Assembly (NCBI GenBank): GCA_964016885.1
Contig: OZ024743.1
Span: 364,498,001 to 364,562,000 of the forward strand
Length of the DNA stretch: 64,000 nucleotides
Direction of reading: 5' to 3'
DNA from: Eledone cirrhosa
Lineage: Eukaryota
In this document: piece by piece, positions 10,565 to 64,000 of the stretch
Layout of the letters: the number at the start of each line of letters is the position of its first letter
How positions within the stretch are numbered: the first letter of the stretch is position 1
Translations under genes and position numbers: made by a program
Notes under the pieces: generated by a model
What the model was told of the DNA's origin: nothing
Seen by the model: the letters and a program-made list of their open reading frames with translations, nothing else
The model's database searches: none

Positions 10565-12169
10565 TTAATCATCACTATCATCATTTAATGTCCAGTTTCC
10601 CTACTAGCAAGGGTTTGGAGGATTGTCCGCAGACCAGGTTGGTACTCAAAGTGAAGAGACTGACCCAGCAATGAGTCGAGAGTGCCTACATCTCGCATCC
10701 GTTCCCGCACCTGACCCAGTGCTCAAACACAATCCCATACACTAACAAATACATTTTATCATGACTCCAGCACTAGGGAATTTGTTGTGTCTTTCACATA
10801 GCTGAAGAGTTATCCTGATGACAGGTTTTTTTTATAGTTGGATACCGTTCCTATTACCAAACATTTTACAGAGTGTATTGTGTGCGGGTGTTAACTGAAG
10901 AGTCCTCTTACATTACGTCCTGTAATGATTTAGCAGAAAATATTTAGCTAAAAATGGGCTTGTTAATTCAAATGTTTATAGTGTCTTTACAAATCATTGG
11001 GAAAATTTGTAATATTGCAGTAAAAACTTCCCTTTTAATGTGATGCAATCACAGTATTGTTTTATACTTTTCAAGAATGCCTTACTAATAGATGTTAAGA
11101 GTTAATATAGATAAGAATATAGGGAGTAAAGGGGTGAGCAGTATGAGGTAGGGTTTGACCAAAAAGGAAGTAATGTAAGACATACAGTCCTTTCAGAAAA
11201 GTAGTGGAGCAATTTAAAAAATAGTATGCTGCTACAAAAAAAAAAAAGACATTCTTTCTCTCTCTCATAAACAGGCATTTGTTAAAAACACAATGGAAAT
11301 GCACTGCTAGCATTAACAAAAAAAAAATAATGCCTACTGGAATTCACCCAGCCTACTTTGTAAAATGGTACTGCCAGTGTTGTGATAAAATGCACCCTCC
11401 CTTTCAGTATTTGCTTTATCTCTCCCTGTCTGTGTTTGTATGAGTATGTATTTAAACTCAATGTGTATGTATGTGCATATAGAGATTCATGTATACAAAT
11501 TGTATTTTGATGTGGATGTATTATCTTTGATACCATACTTTGTGGTAGTTATGGTTTTTTGCAAAGTTTTCTTGCTGGATGCACTTACTATCAGCAACCA
11601 CTTTATAGTGTGGACTGGATGCATTATTTGTGCCACCAGCAGTGACTGCTTTCCTAAATGGCTTGCCATTATTACAGCTTACAGAGCCCACACCTGCTCT
11701 GTGCAGTCTTATTTTATTCAGAGTAACTAAACTTCTAGGTGGGCTACCTTCCCCCATGGCTTATAGAGCCGACATCTACCTCTAAAGCTGCTGCCACAAT
11801 AAAATGCATCCAATACACTATAAATTTGTTGGTATTTTAAGGGCATCCAGTCAGTGAAACCCTTCCAAAAATGGAATGCACATGTAAGACATGGTCCTCT
11901 GATTTATCCAGGAAAACAGTAACTGTAAATAAGAACTGACTGGGCCCACAGCAACCCATCCAACCCATCCAACCTATGACTGCATGGAAATTGCATGTAA
12001 AATGATGATGAAATGTGTAAATGTGTTTATGTGTAGATATGTGCATTTAGAGGGTTATGAATTCATATATGCATCCAAGCTTTTCATTATGGGCATGTGT
12101 TTCACCAAGATTTTAAGTGTATGTTAATTGATATATATCTAAAATATTTCATAAAAGCAATAATATAAT

Positions 12170-12352
12170 TGTTTCTACTTTAGGCACAAGGCCAGCAATT
12201 ACCCAGTGCATTACTGGTACTTTATTTCATCGACCCCGTAAGGATGAAAGGCAAAGTCAACCTCGGCAGGATTTGAACTCAGATCGTAAAGGGACGTAAC
12301 TATGCTGGAAAGCATGGCGTCCGACGCTCTACCGATACTGCCAATCCACCGT
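12170..12352 (-). mobile_element. Full-length tRNA-derived Nin-domain SINE (monomer of the family expanded at 50634-59520)
   Basis: A box TGGCAGTATCGG, B box GAGTTCAAATCC, core GCCTTTCATCCTTACGGGGTCGATGAAATAAAGTACCAG. 18-bp TSD taaaagcaataatataat at 12152 and 12353. Confidence 0.9.
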
Positions 12353-17232: not shown

Positions 17233-17596
17233 GGAGGCACATGGCTTAGTGGTTAGAGCATTGGCCTTGCAATCGAAAGGTTGTGAGTTCAATTCTCAGA
17301 GACCGGGTGATGTGTTGTTTCCTTGAGCAAACACTTTATTTTACATTGCTCCAGTTTACTCAGGTGTAGAAATGAGATAAGGACTGGGGTCCCTATCATT
17401 CCACTGCAAAAAAAAAACCACCCAACCCACTCTGTAAAGTGGACGTGTAGGCGCCACGGAAAAAAAGCACCCAGCACTCACTGTAAATGAGGTTGGTGTT
17501 AGGAAGAGCATCCAGCTGTAGAAATCAAGCCAGAATCAGTACCCATCCCACCCTTGCAAGCAGAGAAAAGTGGACGTAAAATGATGATGATGATGA
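17233..17596 (+). mobile_element. tRNA-derived SINE with CORE-like centre and RTE-derived 3' tail
   Basis: A box TGGCTTAGTGG, B box GAGTTCAATTC, central CCTTGAGCAA-ACACTTTA block; the tail is shared with the RTE 3' UTR and ends in (GAT)n. Confidence 0.85.
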
Positions 17597-17949
17597 TTTA
17601 AATGACAATCAGATAAGAACTTTTTTCAGGGCCTGCGTGACTGATAGGAAGATGTTTAACATTATCAATAAACCTTAAGGATTAAATGTCATGCCATTTG
17701 TGAATCCCAGTCTACTTTGATCTAATCTAACGTTTTCTAAAATTTCCATTCAACTACTGCAGTAGTTGAATGGAAATTTATCCTTAAGGTTTATTGATAA
17801 TGTTAAACATCTTCCTACCAGTCCGCAGGCCCTGAAAAAAGTTCTTATCTGACTGTCATTTAAATCATCATCATCATTTTACATCCACTTTTCCCTGCTT
17901 GCAAGGGTGGGACGGGAACTGATTCTGGCTCGATTTCTACGGCTGGATG
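17509..17949. repeat. Local inverted duplication (arms about 170 bp) with a perfect 40-bp palindrome
   Basis: 17509-17682 is nearly the reverse complement of 17780-17949; 17740-17779 is AAATTTCCATTCAACTACTG|CAGTAGTTGAATGGAAATTT. Confidence 0.9.
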
Positions 17950-36469: not shown

Positions 36470-38075
36470 CTGTGAAAAAATATACATGATGATGATGATA
36501 AATATCTGTATGTGTTTGTGTGGGTATATATACATACATACACAGTAAATCACAGATCCAGCTATTAGATGTACACTATGTACTTTTGTGGAGATGCAAG
36601 ATTTTAAACATCCCCACCCCCTTTTCTTTCTCAAAATAATGGAAGACTAATAATTATGCAAAGCAGAGCATTTTATAAAGATTTTTCAGCGAAAACTAAA
36701 CCGGAAATAAATACTAATAATCGCTATCAAACACAGCTACCATAACACTAGTGTCATAGATAACTATCGTCACTATATCACAATGTTAAAGTCTGAAGAG
36801 ACAACATGATAGCTGAAAGTGCTAACAGATTTTATCATAATATACATCTGAACTGTCAATCTATTTCATATGCATGCGGATGCACACACAAAGTACACAT
36901 TGCAAAGTATTTGGCATAAGGGAGAGAATCTGATTGTAGAAACCATGCCAAAATTGGAGCATATGTAAGCAAGATGTAGCCCTCCGGCCTGGATAGGAGG
37001 AAAGTAGCTTTGATTAAGTACAAGCAGCCCTCAAGTTTCAGCTATTTGACTTTCATATTCTTTGGACTTTCAGACAATAAATTGACACCCCTAATTCAAA
37101 TTCTGTACTCTAAAAATCTAGACATTCGGTTTTTTTTTTAACAAACTGAATTAGACCTATGTAATGTATGCTTTTATTTGATTTTCACCTTTCTAAAGGC
37201 ACAATGTCATAACATTCTCATAATATATTGTAAGCAAGCATTGCTTTTATAGCTGAAATTTTGTCTAAAATATGCTAGAATAAAATCAACTGTGTACATC
37301 AAAATCCATGCTCAGCACAATACTCCTGTAGACGATTTCCACTCATTTGTTTGTAAAGAAACTGACACTATGACAGCTATTTATTACACAACAACCTTAT
37401 ACAAAAGCAGTTTTTAAAGATCTTTTTTATAGTATTAAATCTGACAAAAATGAGTACAAAGCATAAAAGTGATGATGCTGGTTTGAATGCAAAGAAGTGT
37501 AGGCTTTATAAAAATAATACAATAGAGTTAAAACTGGATATTATTAATTGTTCAGAAACTGGGGAGTATCAATCTTCTATAAGCAGGGCTTTGAACAAGA
37601 GCCAATCACTTGTATGTTCAATTATAAAGGACAAAAAGAAAATAGAAGAACTTATATGTAATACAGGAAATATATCAATGACTATTATAGAAAGAAAAAC
37701 AGGAATAATGGAAAAGAATGGAGAATGTTTTTTTTAACAGTTTGGATTGATAACCAACATAGAAAAAAAATGTTCCAATTCAAGACGAGACTATCAATTT
37801 ATATATAAATTGGAAGGAATGCTTGCATGAACAGACAGACTGCTAATTCTACAGAAATTCAAGAAATGGGCAGCATAAAGAGAAAAAGCTAGTGCAGATT
37901 AAGGGGATTATGATGCCCAACAGATTTTTAATGTTGATGAGTCTGGGTTATTTTGGAAGATGCCTGGAAGAACAGATTTATCAGTTGTTGAGATAATTGC
38001 ACCTGGGCATAAAAGCAGTGAAAGGCAGACTGATAACAGAGCTGGTGACTTTAAACTAAAACCAATACTAGTCTA

Positions 38076-39194
38076 TCTAAACCAAAGGTTCTCAACAGGG
38101 GGCGTTTCAGAACTCCAGGGCGGGGCGTTTGGGAGCAAGGTCGCGTTAGGGGGCGTTTGGAGCTGGGGGAGGGGGTTAGGGGGGCGCTGGGTTTTTCCAT
38201 TTTTTAGGATCTCAATTACCGGTTAACGTCTCAATTACCGGACATGCCTGCACACCTGCTCACAGCTGCGGTCAGACTACAGTTATGCTGTCTGCAGCTG
38301 TGAGCAGGTGTGCAGGCATGTCCGGTAATTGAGATCCTAAAAATGGGAAAACCCACAGTCAACTGGGTCTAAGACACTTTGAGCGCAGAAAGTTAGAATC
38401 TTGTCTGAAATTATTGACTCAACCGTAACGAGTTAACACTATGTAGATCTATTTTATTCCCTATTGTATAAATAATATTACAAATAAAAAAAGAAAAGAA
38501 AAAAACAGAAGCGAGTAGAACACGCATCTAGGACCACATACAACACATAATCAGATAATACACACATGTTTGGAATATTGTTAATCAATTTTTTAGTAAT
38601 CTACTGATATAAAAATCAGTAGTATATTGAAAAAGTGAAAAAATGGGGGGGGGGGCATTTCGTGATTTCGAGGGACAAAGGGGGCGTTTGGCCTAAATGG
38701 GTTGAGAACCTGTGATCTAAACTATAATAAAGGAAGGTCTGCAGGATTGCGTATGGTTTATTTTTTTTTATCCCATTTGTAAAATAAGTTGTATTACTTT
38801 GAATAAATAATGAATGAATATTACATAATTTATCTACTAAATTTTGTGGCTGTTGAATAAATATATTTTGTTTATTTAAATATTCACTTCTTTAAAATTT
38901 CTCAAATGTCAACACTTCCAGTTGGCCCTCGCTTAAATAAACATACTAATTTTCTCCTAATGCAGTTTATATATAATATTGTCTTTTTTAATGTATCATG
39001 GATTACGTTACTGATTAAATAAGACAGTGTAATGCAGTCTTTGTTCAATTTCTATGTATTATATATTGTCAATTACGATTTTATTTGATGTATCATATCT
39101 ACATGTATATATATATATATATACCTGCATATAATATCAATATACACAGTACACATGCTAGCAGAAAACCACCCAAGGGTGATTTTTCTGCTAG
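38076..39194 (+). mobile_element. Non-autonomous Helitron inserted in the Tigger transposase
   Basis: 5' end A|TCTAAAC(TATAATAAAGG); 3' palindrome ending CTAG|T. Removing it restores GTC TA|T CAT TCT (VYHS) with no TSD. Confidence 0.85.
38083..38714. mobile_element. hAT-Charlie-like MITE
   Basis: TIRs CAAAGGTTCTCAAC and GTTGAGAACCTGTG; perfect 8-bp TSD ATCTAAAC at 38075 and 38715. Confidence 0.92.
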
Positions 39195-42100
39195 TCATTC
39201 TAAAAATGCTACCCGTCATTTGGAAAGCAAAAAAAAACAAAAAAACCTAAGTTATAGCAGCCATGTATTCAATTTTTGTTCCTACTGTGGATGAGAGAAG
39301 TATATATATGATGATGGCGATGATGATAATGAGGAAATTACACACATCAAAATTTTGACGGGGAAGAAAATTAATGAAGCTTTTTTATACCTTGAACTGT
39401 CTAAACATAGAAGAATATGACCCAGGGATATTCATAAAAACACAGCGTGCTACAGACTTCTTTATCATGAAATGAAATGTGATGTGATGTGATGTTCAGC
39501 AAACTCTTAATCATTTTTTTTAAAGAAAACTGATAATTGATAATTAACAAATATAACACTATCGTAAAATTATATCTTCATTATTAAGGTCAAGCTTGAG
39601 TCTTGTTAATTTGGAGTTTCTCCTGTGTACTCACAGGATCATCAGATATTAACTGTTTTTAATAATTATGATTTATCATCCTTAATTTTCTTAATTCTAT
39701 GTTATGGGTCAGGTGCATTTATGTATTTTATCATTTGAAATGAACCCAAAGACAACTGCAGGCATAAGGATTACTAGGGTACATTTCTCATGTTTGGAGT
39801 GTCAAAATCCCTCAGAGAAACTTATGGGAAAGGAAACTCACAATTCATATGTAATTCAATAACTTAAAGTTTGTATATTTTTAGGCCTTAGGAAAACAGA
39901 ACCCCAGAATTAATACACAATTCAATGATTAAAGATTCAGAAATCCAACTATTGTACACTTTTTCAGGAATGCAACCAATATGAAAGTAGCGGACTGCCT
40001 GTACTGATATGGTCTCTGATGACTCATCCAACCTATGATGTTAAATCACAATGAAAATATATATATTGTATAATGAAAAGAAGCTAAGAGAAAATAACCT
40101 TTGAGAGCCAATGGCATGAATTTTGCCAACAAATTTGACTGACCATACATAATAAATTCTTAATTTATCAAAATTTCCTTTGCAAACAAAGAAGCTGTAG
40201 TTGTTGGCAACTCAGAATGAGACAGGGAGATGATTTCAAGAAATTAGGAATGAATTTCCCTTGAATTAACATGCTTGGGGAAAAGGTTATATATTGTCCT
40301 TTTTAAAGGCAATGGATAGCTGTGGATATGTAATTCTCCCATAATATGCATCATCAGTATGATACTGAGTTTTTTGCCTCCAAACGGGTATAAACATTTT
40401 GAAATATACAAAGAGTTGAGAACATTGTTGGTCAAGGGAAAGGAGCTTAGAAAAAATAACCCAAAAGTATGAATTTGAATAAAGTCAACAGCACTCAACT
40501 GATAGCTGATTACGATAAAAATCTTAATTAAAAATGTCCTTCACAAACAGAGAAGGTAAACTTAATTGTCAACTTTGAATGAGAAGGGGAGAAGTAGTAG
40601 TATGATAAACTACTAAAGCTGCAAATATGCACTGAAAAAGTACAATTACTGGATCAATTCTTGAAATTAAAATGATATTTACAGCTCACAGCTATGGAGT
40701 TGTCCACTTATGAAATATCTCAGAGGTTCCTTGGGTGTTTTAATGATAGAGCCCACAGTCATATCATGAAAACCAATGTCAACTGAAGCTCCATAGTGTA
40801 GGTGCTAAAGATGTTAGGTGTAGACTAGAATTCAATAAGGAATTTAGTGTATAGAGAGGTCTTCAGTCAAGTGACTTTTCATTCATTATATTCTTGGTCT
40901 TAAAAGTCTAGGATTAGTTTTTGGTAGCTTGTAGATGTTGATGACCTGGTTCTCAGCCTGGAAGCATGATTATAAAATTAAAAACCTTTAAAGGTCAACT
41001 TTGAAAAGACCAATGTGATAGTAACAGAAAGCATGAAATTACAATGTCATCTCGGAAGTGGCCTAGTTTAGTTATGTAGAAATTCAATATTTGGATGTGT
41101 TGGACTCATGAATTTGATTCCTAGACTGGGTGACGTGTTCTTGAGTAAGATGCTTTATTTCACATTACCTTTTCCTATCACTAAAGCACCTGAGAAACAT
41201 TTTTCATTTTTAATTCAATGCTATATAATTGGTGTAAGCAATGACTAGACAAAATAAAAGTAATTAATAGAATTATTCATAAGTTCATGAGTGCTAAGAT
41301 GACTTGTTATAGTTGATAGATTCTGTTATCTAGGCGAAATAATTAGTGCTGGGGGTGGATGTATTAAAAACATGCTTGTTAAAGTAAAGGATGATAGTAA
41401 TAGTTCAAGGAGCTATTGCCTAAGCAGCTGGACTATATAAATTTATATATATATATATGTTTCAAAACACAGAGAGAGAGAGAGAGTAAAATAACTGAGA
41501 ATGCAAAAATGTGAATATAAATTTACATATTTTTAGTATATCGACATGTAAACATGCGAAATATATGTATTTCCCTGTAAATTGAAATACATATATTTGG
41601 TATGTTTACATGTCTACACATTTATATAGTCTCAGTTACTTCTCATATATATATATATATATAAAATTATCATAACTCCCATCATGATTTAATGTCTATT
41701 TTCCCTACTAGCAAGGGTTGGATGGATCTTCAAAGATTGAGTCAGTACTGAAATTTCAGATGGGCTGAGGACTTTCATCTCATTTACATGCAGTCTCACA
41801 CTTTACCAAGTGCATTTTATTGTGACACTAGCACTATGGAGGTTGTTGAATCATGGACACAGCTGAAGGATTGTCCCACCCCTTGGTTTGGCAGGCTTTC
41901 TATGGCTGGAGAGCCTTCCTAAAAGCAACGAATTTACAGTGTACTGGGTACGTTTATCATGTAGATCACCAACACTTAGGAGGTTGTCATGTCTTTGACA
42001 TAGCTGAAGTGTCCTCCCAACCTTTGTTTGGCAAGCTTTTTATAGGTGAATGCTCATCTAATGACCAACCACTTTACAGTATGCATTGAGTGAATTTATC

Positions 42101-50010: not shown

Positions 50011-50633
50011 TTGAGAGGGCTATGGTGACCTAAAGTATGATCTAAAACTTTGTAGTGAATGCATGAGCAAAGGCGTCACTTCCGCAAAAGTGTGACGTGC
50101 GTGAATACTTAAACCGAACAGTTTAGTTGCTGCTAGTATTTCAGCCTGCCAAGACCTGTCTAGTGCTCCTATCGCCATCAGCAACTCAGGACATTATTTT
50201 TACTAGCAGAAAACCACCCTCAGGGTGGTTTTCTGCTAGCATGTGTAGTGTGCATATTGATATTATACAAAAATATATATGCATTTAGATACGATACATC
50301 AAATAAAATCGTAATTGAGAATATGCACATAAATTGAAGAGAGACTGTGACACTCTTCTGCAATCAGTAAAGTAATCCATGATACATTTAAAAAAGATGA
50401 TATTATATATAAACTGCATTAAGAGAAAATTAGCGACGGAAATATATGAACGTTTTTATAAGCGATGTAATAAGTTTTATAATATAATGGGCACTAACCG
50501 GAAGTGTTGACATTTGGAAATTTTAAAGAAGTGAATCTTGAAATAAGCAATAAAATTAATTATATTTAATCAAGAGTTATGAAATTTAGTACACAAATTA
50601 TGTAATATTCATTCATTATTTATTCAAAGTAAA

Positions 50634-53600
50634 GGCGGTGGATTGGCAGTATCGGTAGAGGGCGGTGGATTGGTAGTATCGGTAGAGGGCGGTGGATTGG
50701 TAGTATCGGTAGAGGGCGGTGGATTGGTAGTATCGGTAGAGGGCGGTGGATTGGTAGTATCGGTAGAGGGCGGTGGATTGGTAGTATCGGTAGAGGGCGG
50801 TGGATTGGTAGTATCGGTAGAGGGCGGTGGATTGGTAGTATCGGCAGTATCGGTAGAGGGCGGTGGATTGGTAGTATCGGTAGAGGGCGGTGGATTGGTA
50901 GTATCGGTAGAGGGCGGTGGATTGGTAGTATCGGTAGAGGGCGGTGGATTGGTAGTATCGGTAGAGGGCGGTGGATTGGTAGTATCGGTAGAGGGCGGTG
51001 GATTGGTAGTATCGGTAGAGGGCGGTGGATTGGTAGTATCGGTAGAGGGCAGTGGATTGGTAGTATCGGTAGAGGGCAGTGGATTGGTAGTATCGGTAGA
51101 GGGCAGTGGATTGGTAGTATCGGTAGAGGGCAGTGGATTGGTAGTATCGGTAGTATCGGTAGAGGGCGGTGGATTGGTAGTATCGGTAGAGGGCGGTGGA
51201 TTGGTAGTATCGGTAGAGGGCGGTGGATTGGTAGTATCGGTAGAGGGCGGTGGATTGGTAGAGGGCGGTGGATTGGTAGTATCGGTAGAGGGCGGTGGAT
51301 TGGTAGTATCGGTAGAGGGCGGTGGATTGGCAGTATCGGTAGAGGACGGTGGATTGGCAGTATCGGTAGAGGGCGGTGGATTGGTAGTATCGGTAGAGGG
51401 CGGTGGATTGGCAGTATCGGTAGAGGGCGGTGGATTGGTAGTATCGGTAGAGGGCGGTGGATTGGTAGAGGGCGGTGGATTGGTAGTATCGGTAGAGGGC
51501 GGTGGATTGGTAGTATCGGTAGAGGGCGGTGGATTGGCAGTATCGGTAGAGGTCGGTGGATTGGCAGTATCGGTAGAGGGCGGTGGATTGGCAGTATCGG
51601 TAGAGGGCGGTGGATTGGTAGTATCGGTAGAGGGCGGTGGATTGGTAGTATCGGTAGAGGGCGGTGGATTGGTAGTATCGGTAGAGGGCGGTTGATTGGT
51701 AGTATCGGTAGAGGGCGGTGGATTGGTAGTATCGGTAGAGGGCGGTGGATTGGTAGTATCGGTAGAGGGCGGTGGATTGGTAGTATCGGTAGAGGGCGGT
51801 GGATTGGTAGTATCGGTAGAGGGCGGTGGATTGGTAGTATCGGTAGAGGGCGGTGGATTGGTAGTATCGGCAGTATCGGTAGAGGGAGGTGGATTGGTAG
51901 TATCGGTAGAGGGCGGTGGATTGGTAGTATCGGTAGAGGGCGGTGGATTGGTAGTATCGGTAGAGGGCGGTGGATTGGTAGTATCGGTAGAGGGCGGTGG
52001 ATTGGTAGTATCGGTAGAGGGCAGTGGATTGGTAGTATCGGTAGAGGGCAGTGGATTGGTAGTATCGGTAGAGGGCGGTGGATTGGTAGTATCGGTAGAG
52101 GGCGGTGGATTGGTAGTATCGGCAGTATCGGTAGAGGGCGGTGGATTGGTAGTATCGGTAGAGGGCGGTGGATTGGTAGTATTGGTAGAGGGCGGTGGAT
52201 TGGTAGTATCGGTAGAGGGCGGTGGATTGGTAGTATCGGTAGAAGGCGGTGGATTGGTAGTATCGGTAGAGGGCGGTGGATTGGTAGTATCGGTAGAGGG
52301 CGGTGGATTGGTAGTATCGGTAGAAGGCGGTGGATTGGTAGTATCGGTAGAGGGCGGTGGATTGGTAGTATCGGTAGAAGGCGGTGGATTGGTAGTATCG
52401 GCAGTATCGATAGAGGGCGGTGGATTGGTAGTATCGGTAGAGGGCGGTGGATTGGTAGTATCGGTAGAGGGCGGTGGATTGGTAGTATCGGTAGAGGGCG
52501 GTGGATTGGTAGTATCGGCAGTATCGGTAGAGGGCGGTGGATTGGTAGTATCGGTAGAAGGCGGTGGATTGGTAGTATCGGTAGAGGGCGGTGGATTGGT
52601 AGTATCGGTAGAGGGCGGTGGATTGGTAGTATTGGTAGAGGGCGGTGGATTGGTAGTATCGGTAGAGGGCGGTGGATTGGTAGTATCGGTAGAAGGCGGT
52701 GGATTGGTAGTATCGGTAGAGGGCGGTGGATTGGTAGTATCGGTAGAGGGCGGTGGATTGGTAGTATCGGTAGAAGGCGGTGGATTGGTAGTATCGGTAG
52801 AGGGCGGTGGATTGGTAGTATCGGTAGAAGGCGGTGGATTGGTAGTATCGGCAGTATCGATAGAGGGCGGTGGATTGGTAGTATCGGTAGAGGGCGGTGG
52901 ATTGGTAGTATCGGTAGAGGGCGGTGGATTGGTAGTATCGGTAGAGGGCGGTGGATTGGTAGTATCGGCAGTATCGGTAGAGGGCGGTGGATTGGTAGTA
53001 TCGGTAGAAGGCGGTGGATTGGTAGTATCGGTAGAGGGCGGTGGATTGGTAGTATCGGTAGAGGGTGGTGGATTGGTAGTATCGGTAGAGGGCGGTGGAT
53101 TGGTAGTATCGGTAGAGGGCGGTGGATTGGTAGTATCGGTAGAAGGCGGTGGATTGGTAGTATCGGTAGAGGGCGGTGGATTGGTAGTATCGGTAGAGGG
53201 CAGTGGATTGGTAGTATCGGTAGAGGGAGGTGGATTGGTAGTATCGGTAGAAGGCGGTGGATTGGTAGTATCGGTAGAGGGAGGTGGATTGGTAGTATCG
53301 GCAGTATCGGTAGAGGGCGGTGGATTGGTAGTATCGGTAGAAGGCGGTGGATTGGTAGTATCGGTAGAGGGAGGTGGATTGGTAGTATCGGTAGAGGGCG
53401 GTGGATTGGTAGTATCGGTAGAGGGCGGTGGATTGGTAGTATCGGTAGAGGGCAGTGGATTGGTAGTATCGGTAGAGGGCAGTGGATTGGTAGTATCGGT
53501 AGAGGGCAGTGGATTGGTAGTATCGGTAGAGGGCGGTGGATTGGTAGTATCGGTAGAGGGCGGTGGATTGGTAGTATCGGCAGTATCGGTAGAGGGCGGT

Positions 53601-56600
53601 GGATTGGTAGTATCGGTAGAAGGCGGTGGATTGGTAGTATCGGTAGAGGGCGGTGGATTGGTAGTATCGGTAGAGGGCGGTGGATTGGTAGTATCGGTAG
53701 AGGGCGGTGGATTGGTAGTATCGGTAGAGGGCGGTGGATTGGTAGTATCGGTAGAGGGCGGTGGATTGGTAGTATCGGTAGAGGGCGGTGGATTGGTAGT
53801 ATCGGTAGAGGGCAGTGGATTGGTAGTATCGGTAGAGGGCAGTGGATTGGTAGTATCGGTAGAGGGCAGTGGATTGGTAGTATCGGTAGAGGGCGGTGGA
53901 TTGGTAGTATCGGCAGTATCGGTAGAGGGCGGTGGATTGGTAGTATCGGTAGAGGGCGGTGGATTGGTAGTATCGGTAGAGGGCGGTGGATTGGTAGTAT
54001 CGGTAGAGGGCGGTGGATTGGTAGTATCGGCAGAGGGCGGTGGATTGGTAGTATCGGCAGAGGGCGGTGGATTGGTAGTATCGTAAGAGGGCGGTGGATT
54101 GGTAGTATCGGCAGAGGGCGGTGGATTGGTAGTATCGGCAGAGGGCGGTGGATTGGTAGTATCGGCAGAGGGCGGTGGATTGGTAGTATCGGCAGAGGGC
54201 GGTGGATTGGTAGTATCGGTAGAGGGCGGTGGATTGGTAGTATCGGTAGTATCGGCAGAGGGCGGTGGATTGGTAGTATCGGCAGAGGGCGGTGGATTGG
54301 TAGTATCGGCAGTATCGGTAGAGGTCGGTGGATTGGTAGTATCGGCAGTATCGGTAGAGGGCGGTGGATTGGTAGTATCGGTAGAGGGCGGTGGATTGGT
54401 AGTATCGGTAGAGGGCGGTGGATTGGTAGTATCGGTAGAGGTCGGTGGATTGGTAGTATCGGTAGTATCGGCAGAGGGCGGTGGATTGGTAGTATCGGTA
54501 GTATCGGCAGAGGGCGGTGGATTGGTAGTATCGGTAGAGGGCGGTGGATTGGTAGTATCGGTAGAGGTCGGTGGATTGGTAGTATCGGTAGAGGGCGGTG
54601 GATTGGTAGTATCGGTAGAGGGCGGTGGATTGGTAGTATCGGTAGAGGGCGGTGGATTGGTAGTATCGGTAGAGGGCGGTGGATTGGTAGTATCGGTAGA
54701 GGGCGGTGGATTGGTAGTATCGGTAGAGGGCGGTGGATTGGTAGTATCGGTAGAGGGCGGTGGATTGGTAGTATCGGTAGAGGGCGGTGGATTGGTAGTA
54801 TCGGTAGAGGGCGGTGGATTGGTAGTATCGGTAGAGGGCGGTGGATTGGTAGTATCGGTAGAGGGCGGTGGATTGGTAGTATCGGTAGAGGGCGGTGGAT
54901 TGGTAGTATCGGTAGTATCGGCAGAGGGCGGTGGATTGGTAGTATCGGCAGTATCGGTAGAGGGCGGTGGATTGGTAGTATCGGCAGTATCGGTAGAGGG
55001 CGGTGGATTGGTAGTATCGGTAGAGGGCGGTGGATTGGTAGTATCGGTAGAGGGCAGTGGATTGGTAGTATCGGCAGAGGGCGGTGGATTGGTAGTATCG
55101 GTAGTATCGGCAGAGGGCGGTGGATTGGTAGTATCGGCAGTATCGGTAGAGGGCGGTGGATTGGTAGTATCGGTAGAGGGCGGTGGATTGGTAGTATCGG
55201 TAGAGGTCGGTGGATTGGTAGTATCGGTAGTATCGGCAGAGGGCGGTGGATTGGTAGTATCGGTAGTATCGGCAGAGGGCGGTGGATTGGTAGTATCGGT
55301 AGAGGGCGGTGGATTGGTAGTATCGGCAGAGGGCGGTGGATTGGTAGTATCGGTAGAGGGCGGTGGATTGGTAGTATCGGCAGAGGGCGGTGGATTGGTA
55401 GTATCGGTAGAGGGCGGTGGATTGGTAGTATCGGTAGAGGGCGGTGGATTGGTAGTATCGGTAGAGGGCGGTGGATTGGTAGTATCGGTAGAGGGCGGCG
55501 GATTGGCAGTATCGGTAGAGGGCGGTGGATTGGTAGTATCGGTAGAGGGCGGTGGATTGGTAGTATCGGTAGAGGGCGGTGGATTGGTAGTATCGGTAGA
55601 GGGCGGTGGATTGGTAGTATCGGTAGAGGGCGGTGGATTGGTAGTATCGGTAGAGGGCGGTGGATTGGTAGTATCGGTAGAGGGCGGTGGATTGGTAGTA
55701 TCGGTAGAGGGCGGTGGATTGGTAGTATCGGTAGAGGGCGGTGGATTGGTAGTATCGGTAGAGGGCGGTGGATTGGTAGTATCGGTAGAGGGCGGTGGAT
55801 TGGTAGTATCGGTAGAGGGCGGTGGATTGGTAGTATCGGTAGAGGGCGGTGGATTGGTAGTATCGGTAGAGGGCGGTGGATTGGTAGTATCGGTAGAGGG
55901 CGGTGGATTGGTAGTATCGGTAGAGGGCGGTGGATTGGTAGTATCGGTAGAGGGCGGTGGATTGGTAGTATCGGTAGAGGGCGGTGGATTGGTAGTATCG
56001 GTAGAGGGCGGTGGATTGGTAGTATCGGTAGTATCGGCAGAGGGCGGTGGATTGGTAGTATCGGTAGAGGGCGGTGGATTGGTAGTATCGGCAGAGGGCG
56101 GTGGATTGGTAGTATCGGCAGAGGGCGGTGGATTGGTAGTATCGGTAGTATCGGTAGAGGGCGGTGGATTGGTAGTATCGGCAGTATCGGTAGAGGGCGG
56201 TGGATTGGTAGTATCGGCAGAGGGCGGTGGATTGGTAGTATCGGCAGTATCGGTAGAGGGCGGTGGATTGGTAGTATCGGTAGAGGGCGGTGGATTGGTA
56301 GTATCGGCAGTATCGGTAGAGGGCGGTGGATTGGTAGTATCGGTAGAGGGCGGTGGATTGGTAGTATCGGCAGTATCGGTAGAGGGCGGTGGATTGGTAG
56401 TATCGGCAGTATCGGTAGAGGGCGGTGGATTGGTAGTATCGGCAGTATCGGTAGAGGGCGGTGGATTGGTAGTATCGGTAGAGGGCGGTGGATTGGTAGT
56501 ATCGGCAGAGGGCGGTGGATTGGTAGTATCGGCAGTATCGGTAGAGGGCGGTGGATTGGTAGTATCGGCAGAGGGCGGTGGATTGGTAGTATCGGCAGTA

Positions 56601-58978
56601 TCGGTAGAGGGCGGTGGATTGGTAGTATCGGTAGAGGGCGGTGGATTGGTAGTATCGGCAGTATCGGTAGAGGGCGGTGGATTGGTAGTATCGGTAGAGG
56701 GCGGTGGATTGGTAGTATCGGCAGTATCGGTAGAGGGCGGTGGATTGGTAGTATCGGTAGAGGGCGGTGGATTGGTAGTATCGGCAGTATCGGTAGAGGG
56801 CGGTGGATTGGTAGTATCGGTAGAGGGCGGTGGATTGGTAGTATCGGCAGTATCGGTAGAGGGCGGTGGATTGGTAGTATCGGCAGTATCGGTAGAGGGC
56901 GGTGGATTGGTAGTATCGGCAGTATCGGTAGAGGGCGGTGGATTGGTAGTATCGGTAGAGGGCAGTGGATTGGTAGTATCGGTAGAGGGCGGTGGATTGG
57001 TAGTATCGGCAGAGGGCGGTGGATTGGTAGTATCGGCAGTATCGGTAGAGGGCGGTGGATTGGTAGTATCGGTAGAGGGCGGTGGATTGGTAGTATCGGT
57101 AGAGGGCGGTGGATTGGTAGTATCGGTAGAGGGCGGTGGATTGGTAGTATCGGTAGAGGGCGGTGGATTGGTAGTATCGGTAGAGGGCGGTGGATTGGTA
57201 GTATCGGTAGAGGGCGGTGGATTGGTAGTATCGGTAGAGGGCGGTGGATTGGTAGTATCGGTAGTATCGGCAGAGGGCGGTGGATTGGTAGTATCGGTAG
57301 AGGGCGGTGGATTGGTAGTATCGGCAGAGGGCGGTGGATTGGTAGTATCGGCAGAGGGCGGTGGATTGGTAGTATCGGTAGAGGGCGGTGGATTGGTAGT
57401 ATCGGCAGTATCGGTAGAGGGCGGTGGATTGGTAGTATCGGCAGTATCGGTAGAGGGCAGTGGATTGGTAGTATCGGTAGAGGGCGGTGGATTGGTAGTA
57501 TCGGTAGAGGGCGGTGGATTGGTAGTATCGGTAGAGGGCAGTGGATTGGTAGTATCGGTAGAGGGCGGTGGATTGGTAGTATCGGTAGAGGGCAGTGGAT
57601 TGGTAGTATCGGCAGAGGGCGGTGGATTGGTAGTATCGGCAGAGGGCGGTGGATTGGTAGTATCGGTAGAGGGCGGTGGATTGGTAGTATCGGCAGAGGG
57701 CGGTGGATTGGTAGTATCGGCAGTATCGGTAGAGGGCGGTGGATTGGTAGTATCGGTAGAGGGCGGTGGATTGGTAGTATCGGTAGAGGGCGGTGGATTG
57801 GTAGTATCGGTAGAGGGCAGTGGATTGGTAGTATCGGCAGAGGGCGGTGGATTGGTAGTATCGGCAGAGGGCGGTGGATTGGTAGTATCGGTAGAGGGCG
57901 GTGGATTGGTAGTATCGGTAGAGGGCGGTGGATTGGTAGTATCGGCAGAGGGCGGTGGATTGGTAGTATCGGTAGAGGGCGGTGGATTGGTAGTATCGGC
58001 AGAGGGCGGTGGATTGGTAGTATCGGTAGAGGGCGGTGGATTGGTAGTATCGGCAGAGGGCGGTGGATTGGTAGTATCGGCAGAGGGCGGTGGATTGGTA
58101 GTATCGGTAGAGGGCGGTGGATTGGTAGTATCGGTAGAGGGCGGTGGATTGGTAGTATCGGCAGAGGGCGGTGGATTGGTAGTATCGGTAGAGGGCGGTG
58201 GATTGGTAGTATCGGCAGAGGGCGGTGGATTGGTAGTATCGGTAGAGGGCGGTGGATTGGTAGTATCGGTAGAGGGCAGTGGATTGGTAGTATCGGTAGA
58301 GGGCGGTGGATTGGTAGTATCGGCAGTATCGGTAGAGGGCGGTGGATTGGTAGTATCGGTAGAGGGCGGTGGATTGGTAGTATCGGTAGAGGGCGGTGGA
58401 TTGGTAGTATCGGTAGAGGGCAGTGGATTGGTAGTATCGGTAGAGGGCGGTGGATTGGTAGTATCGGCAGTATCGGTAGAGGGCGGTGGATTGGTAGTAT
58501 CGGTAGAGGGCGGTGGATTGGTAGTATCGGTAGAGGGCGGTGGATTGGTAGTATCGGTAGAGGGCAGTGGATTGGTAGTATCGGTAGAGGGCGGTGGATT
58601 GGTAGTATCGGCAGTATCGGTAGAGGGCGGTGGATTGGTAGTATCGGTAGAGGGCGGTGGATTGGTAGTATCGGTAGAGGGCGGTGGATTGGTAGTATCG
58701 GTAGAGGGCGGTGGATTGGTAGTATCGGTAGAGGGCAGTGGATTGGTAGTATCGGTAGAGGGCGGTGGATTGGTAGTATCGGCAGAGGGCGGTGGATTGG
58801 TAGTATCGGCAGTATCGGTAGAGGGCGGTGGATTGGTAGTATCGGCAGTATCGGTAGAGGGCGGTGGATTGGTAGTATCGGTAGAGGGCGGTGGATTGGT
58901 AGTATCGGTAGAGGGCGGTGGATTGGTAGTATCGGCAGTATCGGTAGAGGGCGGTGGATTGGTAGTATCGGTAGAGGG
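50634..58978 (+). repeat. 8.3-kb tandem array of a 27-bp unit GGCGGTGGATTGGTAGTATCGGTAGAG (about 300 units, with 18- and 36-bp variants)
   Basis: Read directly; the copy number is estimated from length. The unit equals the SINE 5' head and the last unit runs on into the SINE body. Confidence 0.98.
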
Positions 58979-59520
58979 TCGGACGCCATGCTTTCCAGCA
59001 TAGTTACGTCCCTTTAGGATCTGAGTTCAAATCCCGCCGAGGTTAACTTTGCCTTTCATCCTTACGGGGTCGATAAAATAAAGTACCAGTAATGCACTGG
59101 GTAATTGCTGGCCTTGTACCTGAAGTAGAAACAATTATTATGGATTGGCAGTATCGGTAGAGAGTCGGACACCATGCTTTGAAGCATAGAGTTACGTCCC
59201 TTTATGATCTGAGTTCAAATCCCGCCGAGGTTAACTTTGCCTTTCATCCTTACGGGGTCGATGAAATAAAGTACCAGTAATGTACTGGGTAATTGCTGGC
59301 CTTGTGCCAAAAGAAGAAAATTATTATATTATGATATAAGGGCAGTGGATTGGCAGTATCGGTAGAGGGCCAGACGCCATGTTTTGCAGCATAGAGTTAC
59401 GCCCCTTTATGGTCTGAGTTCAAATCCCGCAGAGGTTAACTTTGCCTTTCATCCTTACAGGGTCGATAAAATAAAGTACCAGTAATGCCAAGAGTAGCTG
59501 CCAAGAGTAGAAACAATTAT
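58950..59520 (+). mobile_element. Three head-to-tail Nin-domain SINE copies (58950-59140, 59141-59325, 59340-59520)
   Basis: Each copy has an A box, GAGTTCAAATCC, the Nin core and an AT-rich tail. Copy 3 is flanked by duplicated tatattatgatata. Confidence 0.92.
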
Positions 59521-60382
59521 ATTATGATATACGAAGCAAGGACTTTACTTCTTCAACGTGAGTAACTGCAACACTCATGGAGTTGAACATTATTTCCCAC
59601 TGACCTGCTCGCATACAACTTTGTGTCACATATTCTGCATCAGTCATGCTTGTCACTTGACTTAATAAATTCCTATGTTTGTTTTCAATCAAAACGCCTT
59701 CCGATTTATTATACACCTTTTTATTTAGTTATTTGAGGAATATTCCACGTCGGGTCACCAATTGTAGCAAGATGATCAGCAGTGAAATAAAAAGATGTAT
59801 AATAAATCAGAAGGCGCTTTGATTGAAAACAAACATGGGAATTTATTAAGTCAAGTGACAAGCATGGCTAATGCAGAATATGTGACAAAGGTGTATGTGA
59901 GCGGGTCAGTGGGAAATAATGTTCAAGTCCATGAGTGTTGCAAATATTACTCACATTGAAGAAGTAAAGTCCTTGCTTCGTATATAAGAATAATGTCCCG
60001 AGTTACTAATGGAAATAGGAGAAGGAGCACTAGATAGGTCTTGGCAGGCTAAAATACTAGCAGCAACTAAACTGTTCGGTTTAAGTATTCACGCTCGTCA
60101 CACTTGGGTGGAAGTGACGCCACCGAGCCTTTGCGCATACAACTTCACTAGGTGGTGCTATTAAGTTAAACATGACCTAGTCCAATACTAGTCAAAAGTT
60201 ATTAAAGTAAGCATTTGGGTGTACTTCAGAATTTTGTATTTCCAGACAAACCCCTGAAGACAAGACATTCAGAGCAGACTGAAGCCTCTGTCTCTCACTT
60301 GGTTGAGAAGTAAATTGAGTTTAACAATCTCAATGGATGAGAATATAAAACTATACTACTGCACTTCACTATCAGATTTGGG

Positions 60383-63857: not shown

Positions 63858-64000
63858 AACTTAACTTTGCCTTTCATCCTTACGGGGGTCGATAAAATAA
63901 AGTACCAGTAATACACTGGGTTATTGCTGGCCTTGTGCCAACAGTAGAAACAATTATATATATAGGTTGATTGGCAGTATCGGTAGAGGGTCGGACGCCA
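63858..64000 (+). mobile_element. Nin-domain SINE 3' half followed immediately by the head of another copy
   Basis: ttaactttgcctttcatccttacgggggtcgat...gaaacaattata, then gattggcagtatcggtagagggtcggacgcca at the window edge. Confidence 0.85.

Follow-up and report, generated by a model that had tools for sequence, protein, structure and literature searches.

An inverted LTR-like pair of Eledone cirrhosa interrupted by a Helitron with SINEs and a 27-bp SINE-head array, and a SINE insertion hotspot in that Helitron

The window analysed here, a stretch of 64,000 nucleotides of Eledone cirrhosa (contig OZ024743.1, positions 364,498,001 to 364,562,000 of the forward strand), holds a nested insertion of four levels, in which an outer element contains a Helitron, the Helitron contains SINEs, and the SINEs are preceded by a long array of their own head (Table 1). 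The first-pass annotation had proposed this nesting, which was borne out once two of its labels had been corrected. As it had described, once positions 50203-59527 are excised, the left arm can be aligned with the right arm through the junction, where the two differ by one substitution, and the excised part has the ends A/CTAG...GA/T with no target site duplication (A at 50202, CTAG at 50203-50206, GA at 59526-59527 and T at 59528). The nesting is most likely the product of known processes acting at the locus. We consider, with a probability of about 0.88, that it was built in place by a Helitron that entered an LTR arm and by later, separate SINE insertions, one head having likely been expanded locally.

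Table 1. Features of the nested locus (positions in the window)
Feature	Position	Strand	Remarks
ACTT at the left, possibly one half of a 4-bp target duplication round the whole LTR pair	50047..50050	+	same bases at 60142-60145
LTR-like element, left copy, 5' part	50051..50202	+	begins TGTAG
Non-autonomous Helitron, body and 3' end, terminal hairpin ending CTAG	50203..50632	-	positions 79-503 of intact copy L052
Site A SINE hotspot, 17-nt upstream target copy	50616..50632	+	downstream partner missing here
27-bp minisatellite of the SINE head	50634..58978	+	292 units parsed, 25 variants; first unit keeps the C of the SINE
SINE copy s1	58952..59134	+	head is the last array unit
SINE copy s2	59141..59320	+	slight truncation at the 5' end; carries a different diagnostic variant
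15-bp duplication TTATATTATGATATA (site B), upstream copy	59324..59338	+	
SINE copy s3	59339..59516	+	altered 3' part
15-bp duplication, downstream copy	59517..59531	+	11 nt of Helitron 5' tip (59517-59527), then 4 nt of the LTR flank
LTR-like element, left copy, 3' part	59528..59726	+	without last ~22 bp
Sequence like a primer binding site, with the short leader of the right LTR	59727..59762	-	fold joint at A/T-rich microhomology
LTR-like element, right copy, inverted	59763..60141	-	5' terminus rearranged
ACTT at the right, possibly the other half of the 4-bp target duplication	60142..60145	+	

The outer element had been labelled a foldback, a label that had to be abandoned, as it is an inverted pair of LTR-like sequences: the 28 other loci of the family that were read are single-arm copies, and one further folded locus is truncated. 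The single-arm relatives are about 390 bp long with TG...CA ends, and exact 4-bp direct repeats were seen by eye at 10 of the 28 copies, the others being truncated, followed by leader or flanked by mismatched bases; both the TG...CA ends and the 4-bp duplication at solo copies are those of an LTR. Together with the primer-binding-site-like sequence, these ends, lengths and duplications resemble LTRs of the Ty3/Gypsy type, which we take to be the nearest class; unlike in that class, the two LTRs here stand tail to tail and inverted, with just 36 bp of leader between them. The primer-site-like motif after the right arm, presumably of tRNA-Trp type, is also present in elements of another LTR family, and these encode protease, reverse transcriptase, RNase H and integrase. 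For the present family, no Pfam match was obtained with four ORFs of locus L225 and one ORF of L243, and no second LTR was found within about 9 kb at loci L224-L226. Among five loci with this leader, three run on unfolded and two fold back at the same joint, namely the window and a truncated locus on contig C7, which are 82-86% alike. The C7 locus (L235/L251, G000:C7:33,479,300) is truncated on both sides and carries a SINE at the TTATT site of its LTR. The two arms in the window are 91-94% alike, inside the range of 82-96% between these arms and other copies, a value that speaks neither for nor against their being sister copies. The outer pair may be, though with less than even probability, a snap-back product of LTR retroelement reverse transcription that was integrated whole with a 4-bp duplication. 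A strand with the LTR, the primer site and the leader would have folded at a short A/T match, and its copying would have given a palindrome whose two LTR starts face outward. If this is true, the same joint at the second locus would mean either that the event recurred or that the palindrome itself spread, and a route would exist from LTR elements to foldback-shaped repeats. The Rfam matches over the inverted pair were below the gathering scores and reflect the hairpin only. Elsewhere in the window, a 440-bp inverted repeat with 82% identity lies at 17509-17949.

The Helitron at the locus matches, on the minus strand, the copy in the window that ends at 39195. The family is formed of elements of about 503 bp (4,304 first-look candidates), and the present copy has both the 5' TC and the 3' CTAG ends by which membership is recognised. 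The 5' tip TCATAATATAA(TAA) is a genuine and common end of the family, and 11-14 nt at the right end of the insert match it; these are all that was found of the Helitron to the right of the SINEs, where no body sequence is present. In a sample of 29 other Helitrons of the family, A preceded TC in 21 of 22 and T followed CTAG in 18 of 18 scorable copies, and the copy at the locus is likewise inserted between A and T without target duplication. The 3' hairpin has a 16-bp stem (-17.7 kcal/mol) that extends into the terminus, with no gap before the end. The Helitron copy at 38076 is interrupted 7 bp from its 5' end (window positions 38075-38722) by a 632-bp element with 14-bp terminal inverted repeats, an 8-bp duplication ATCTAAAC and an internal hairpin at 38229-38334, which is presumably hAT-like. 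Helitrons with internal inversions were also seen (L081/L082 and L039), their breakpoints lying at a SINE-filled site A.

The claim of a SINE trimer was right as to the presence of three SINEs and wrong as to a triplicated unit: the copies are mutually only 89-93% alike and differ in diagnostic variants, which rules out a local triplication. The 15-bp direct repeat that bounds s3 crosses the border between Helitron and flank; because this duplication includes LTR flank, s3 was inserted after the Helitron. The SINE family is dispersed, of high copy number and flanked by target duplications of variable length. Motifs resembling A and B boxes were seen in its head by eye, and Rfam gave no tRNA match in the head at E<=1. 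Forty insertions outside site A, collected by a search that demanded T after the SINE tail, gave the target consensus YA/TTAT(T) and duplications of 9-22 bp. The SINEs inside the Helitron are most likely later, separate, target-primed insertions at YA/TTATT sites. As in the sections on RTE-related SINE insertion of PMC6007223, the duplication begins with T and matches the simple-repeat tail; unlike the insertions described in those sections, the 40 sites here have no T stretch about 10 nt upstream, and duplications of 14-18 bp are frequent. The SINE is also present at 12160-12351 and 63861-64000 of the window; one of these copies has a 17-bp duplication, and the other begins a tandem pair that is interrupted by the end of the window.

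The pattern of the junction between Helitron and SINE head had 348 matches in the genome, and 90 of these loci, all on contigs C1-C2, were read. Upstream of the junction there was Helitron body at 66, the tail of another SINE at 21 and other sequence at 3, therefore SINE stacking is common. Most duplications at these loci measure 14-18 nt, the extra bases vary, and the Helitron resumes intact beyond the SINE. At the locus in the window it does not: about 65 bp of Helitron 5' sequence had been reported missing where the SINEs sit, and the value is 63 bp by comparison with the 38076 copy and 64 bp with L052. The first of two alternatives offered for this, SINE insertion on site with a deletion, stands. 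The gap spans from the end of the 17-nt site-A duplication to site B, and 17 nt is one of the two commonest lengths of site-A duplications. A Helitron at another locus (L171) has a SINE at site A and a straddling duplication at site B, with the intervening Helitron intact; recombination between two SINEs like these would yield the present locus, and recombination between SINEs at two target sites is the most likely origin of the gap. The step is rare and unproven, because no clear second deletion from site A to site B was seen among the 90 junction loci, L139/L140 being doubtful. It is like the Alu recombination-mediated deletions treated in part of PMC2041999, in which the sequence between co-oriented SINEs is lost and one chimeric copy is left; unlike those, the deletion here is inferred from its breakpoints. 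A less probable origin is a single step, in which a SINE primed at site B had its 5' end joined upstream and the target was lost. This requires one insertion fewer, and it has a precedent in a 5'-truncated SINE at site B with ~36 bp of Helitron target lost (L123), which shows that insertion with deletion also occurs in this family. However, the 5' joint is a full-length SINE head at a typical site-A duplication end, which a free deletion endpoint would meet only by chance, and doubly filled Helitrons do exist. Two near-identical 5-kb duplicates (L227 and L228, G000:C1:341.90 and 342.66 Mb) differ in a tandem run of SINEs, which is one unit longer in one of them, and are possibly a second case of a deletion from site A to site B.

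Within this Helitron, a single base acts as a hotspot for SINE insertion. Exact patterns found site A filled in 1,604 matches and empty in 2,689, a filled fraction that is biased upward by young SINE tails, and among 29 Helitrons picked solely by body similarity it was filled in 5 (4 by the automatic tally). The exact pattern of SINE tail and site B gave 7 matches, of which one adjoins Helitron body, and was set aside. The LTR family has a SINE hotspot of its own, filled in 5 of 28 copies (L112, L113, L114, L117 and L119) and lying a few bases from the point where the Helitron landed in the window. Site A is like the human transposon hotspots in the relevant sections of Levy, Schwartz and Ast (2010; PMC2836564), being single-base, orientation-specific and a site for a SINE within another element; unlike in those sections, the host is a Helitron, with 17-37% of the sampled copies filled. 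It is rather unlikely that the partner LINE of the SINE recognises a longer sequence or structure in the Helitron, so that site A would be near site-specific beyond a short motif. The occupancy of 17-37% compares with a rough 2% per YATTAT site (216,418 SINE tails over about 9.9 million YATTAT sites, extrapolated from 251 kb), and the other YATTAT sites of the same Helitron are filled in none or one of the 29 copies. On the other hand, the site in the LTR family is filled likewise, site A accounts for less than 1% of all SINE tails, and non-specific elements have known single-base hotspots in transposons, at least in the part of PMC2836564 that concerns them. In repeat libraries the hotspot will give rise to composite families that are false, and SINE presence/absence markers will suffer from parallel insertions. 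The insertions at this single base, which number well above a thousand, are natural replicates useful for defining the target rule of the partner LINE.

The second alternative of the first-pass annotation was that the Helitron carried the SINEs and the satellite as a unit, and the same junction at unrelated loci was to support this. The junction does recur, at the 348 places given above, but its recurrence does not discriminate, because site A is an insertion hotspot; as proof of co-mobilisation it was rejected in view of the varied duplications and the unlinked SINE and Helitron variants. A junction at hundreds of loci thus mimics co-mobilisation, yet here an insertion hotspot produces it, which is a warning for similar cases. 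Moved composites would show linked SINE and Helitron variants, and our results contradict unit movement. SINE and Helitron distances were uncorrelated at 58 single-SINE loci of the 90 (Mantel rho 0.03, p 0.34) and, in a repeat with four rearranged loci dropped and the window shortened, at 54 loci (rho -0.06, p 0.82). The table of SINE and Helitron subfamilies gave p 0.56 for 62 classifiable loci, and among 1,431 locus pairs there was none in which both parts had two rare variants in common and the junction was shared as well. Helitrons 2.4% apart hold SINEs 10-13% apart, and SINEs less than 1% apart were found in Helitrons more than 20% apart. Two close pairs were rejected as co-mobilised: L072/L135, with the same junction, have no rare variant in common, and L139/L140, the sole near-identical pair, share sequence for 5 kb past the Helitron ends and are a segmental duplicate. 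The 15-bp duplication across the Helitron end, the lack of a duplicated head at all 90 junction loci and a second long array without a Helitron also contradict unit carriage. Even carriage of part of the cargo as a rolling-circle unit (s1 and s2 with the array, or a single site-A SINE) is highly improbable, for although both Helitron ends are present, the junction motif recurs and oyster Helentrons carry tandem repeats in the part of PMC7492417 that treats them, the s3 duplication contains flank, no co-descent of SINE and Helitron was detected, a duplicated head is missing from all 90 junction loci, and the two long arrays, together with the short ones listed, account for the 574 head-dimer matches except for at most 13. 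Rare co-mobilisation may occur among Helitron copies beyond those read.

The build-up in place would have proceeded as follows. The inverted LTR pair would have formed first, a Helitron would then have landed at an A/T site in one of its arms, and s3 would have entered site B with a 15-bp duplication that extends over the Helitron end; these three steps are read from the sequence. Copies s2 and s1 would then have entered the regenerated target, and a further SINE would have entered site A, 64 bp away, probably in this order. Recombination between the co-oriented SINEs of site A and site B, with loss of the intervening sequence, may have followed, and the 27-bp head would presumably have been duplicated last and then grown to about 293 units.

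The head array had been described as the innermost level, and it is real: it covers 8,345 bp in the assembly with a period of 27 and about 293 copies. As many as 163 of the 292 parsed units are identical. The array strand (50634-58978) has 47% G and 9% C, and local higher-order duplications of unit variants are seen. Its tandem units are part of a SINE and the terminal unit runs on into a SINE, as in a SINE-derived satellite. A second head array was found at C4:128,274-138,591 (L218-L219), 10.3 kb long and 128 kb from the contig start. It has a different main unit, ends in the SINE 3' part and has a target duplication of its own, a near-identical repeat of 12 bp; the array is more degenerate in the middle, and no Helitron match was obtained there in 19.8 kb. 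At about 20 unrelated loci the head forms short repeats, with 2-6 units each. A degenerate head-dimer pattern gave 574 matches, of which 546 lie in the two long arrays, 15 are listed short cases and at most 13 are left. With 546 of 574 matches in two long arrays there is no family of many such arrays, and because only two long arrays of the unit were found, the head array is a locus-specific minisatellite and not a satellite family. Growth of the head would have taken place on site by slippage and unequal exchange. The start of the array unit resembles the SINE sequence just after the head, a likeness that would favour slippage.

The array can be compared with published systems. Squamate SINE-derived satellites, in the sections of Vassetzky et al. 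(2023; PMC10702118) used here, have units of about 70-290 nt, consist of a part of a SINE in an array that ends in the remaining SINE, and comprise a few to hundreds of units, the arrays having arisen independently, as is the case here; unlike in those sections, the unit here is 27 nt and covers the extreme 5' head only. The same sections place longer loci towards chromosome ends, and here the distances to the ends of C4 are 128 kb and 14 Mb. Two independent kilobase arrays of a 27-bp head extend SINE-derived tandem repeats beyond reptiles, with far shorter units. The array is also like the oyster Cg_HINE Helentrons in the pertinent part of Vojvoda Zeljko et al. (2020; PMC7492417) in lying between the ends of a non-autonomous rolling-circle element. 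There the array module is common to many dispersed copies, whereas here it is in one Helitron copy and stems from later SINE insertion, and the same module was present at none of the 90 junction loci as it would be for an element of HINE type. Even the Helitron-carriage reading would describe a known route, because oyster Helentrons with tandem repeats are published in that part of PMC7492417. Insertion hotspots in transposons, SINE-derived satellites and Helitron-type satellite carriage are thus already published; no report of this SINE hotspot in a Helitron or of inverted-LTR snap-back insertions was found in a search of mainly open-access papers. At a further locus (L019/L220, G000:C3:17,071,377), an array of about 1 kb is composed of a 45-bp SINE-head unit.
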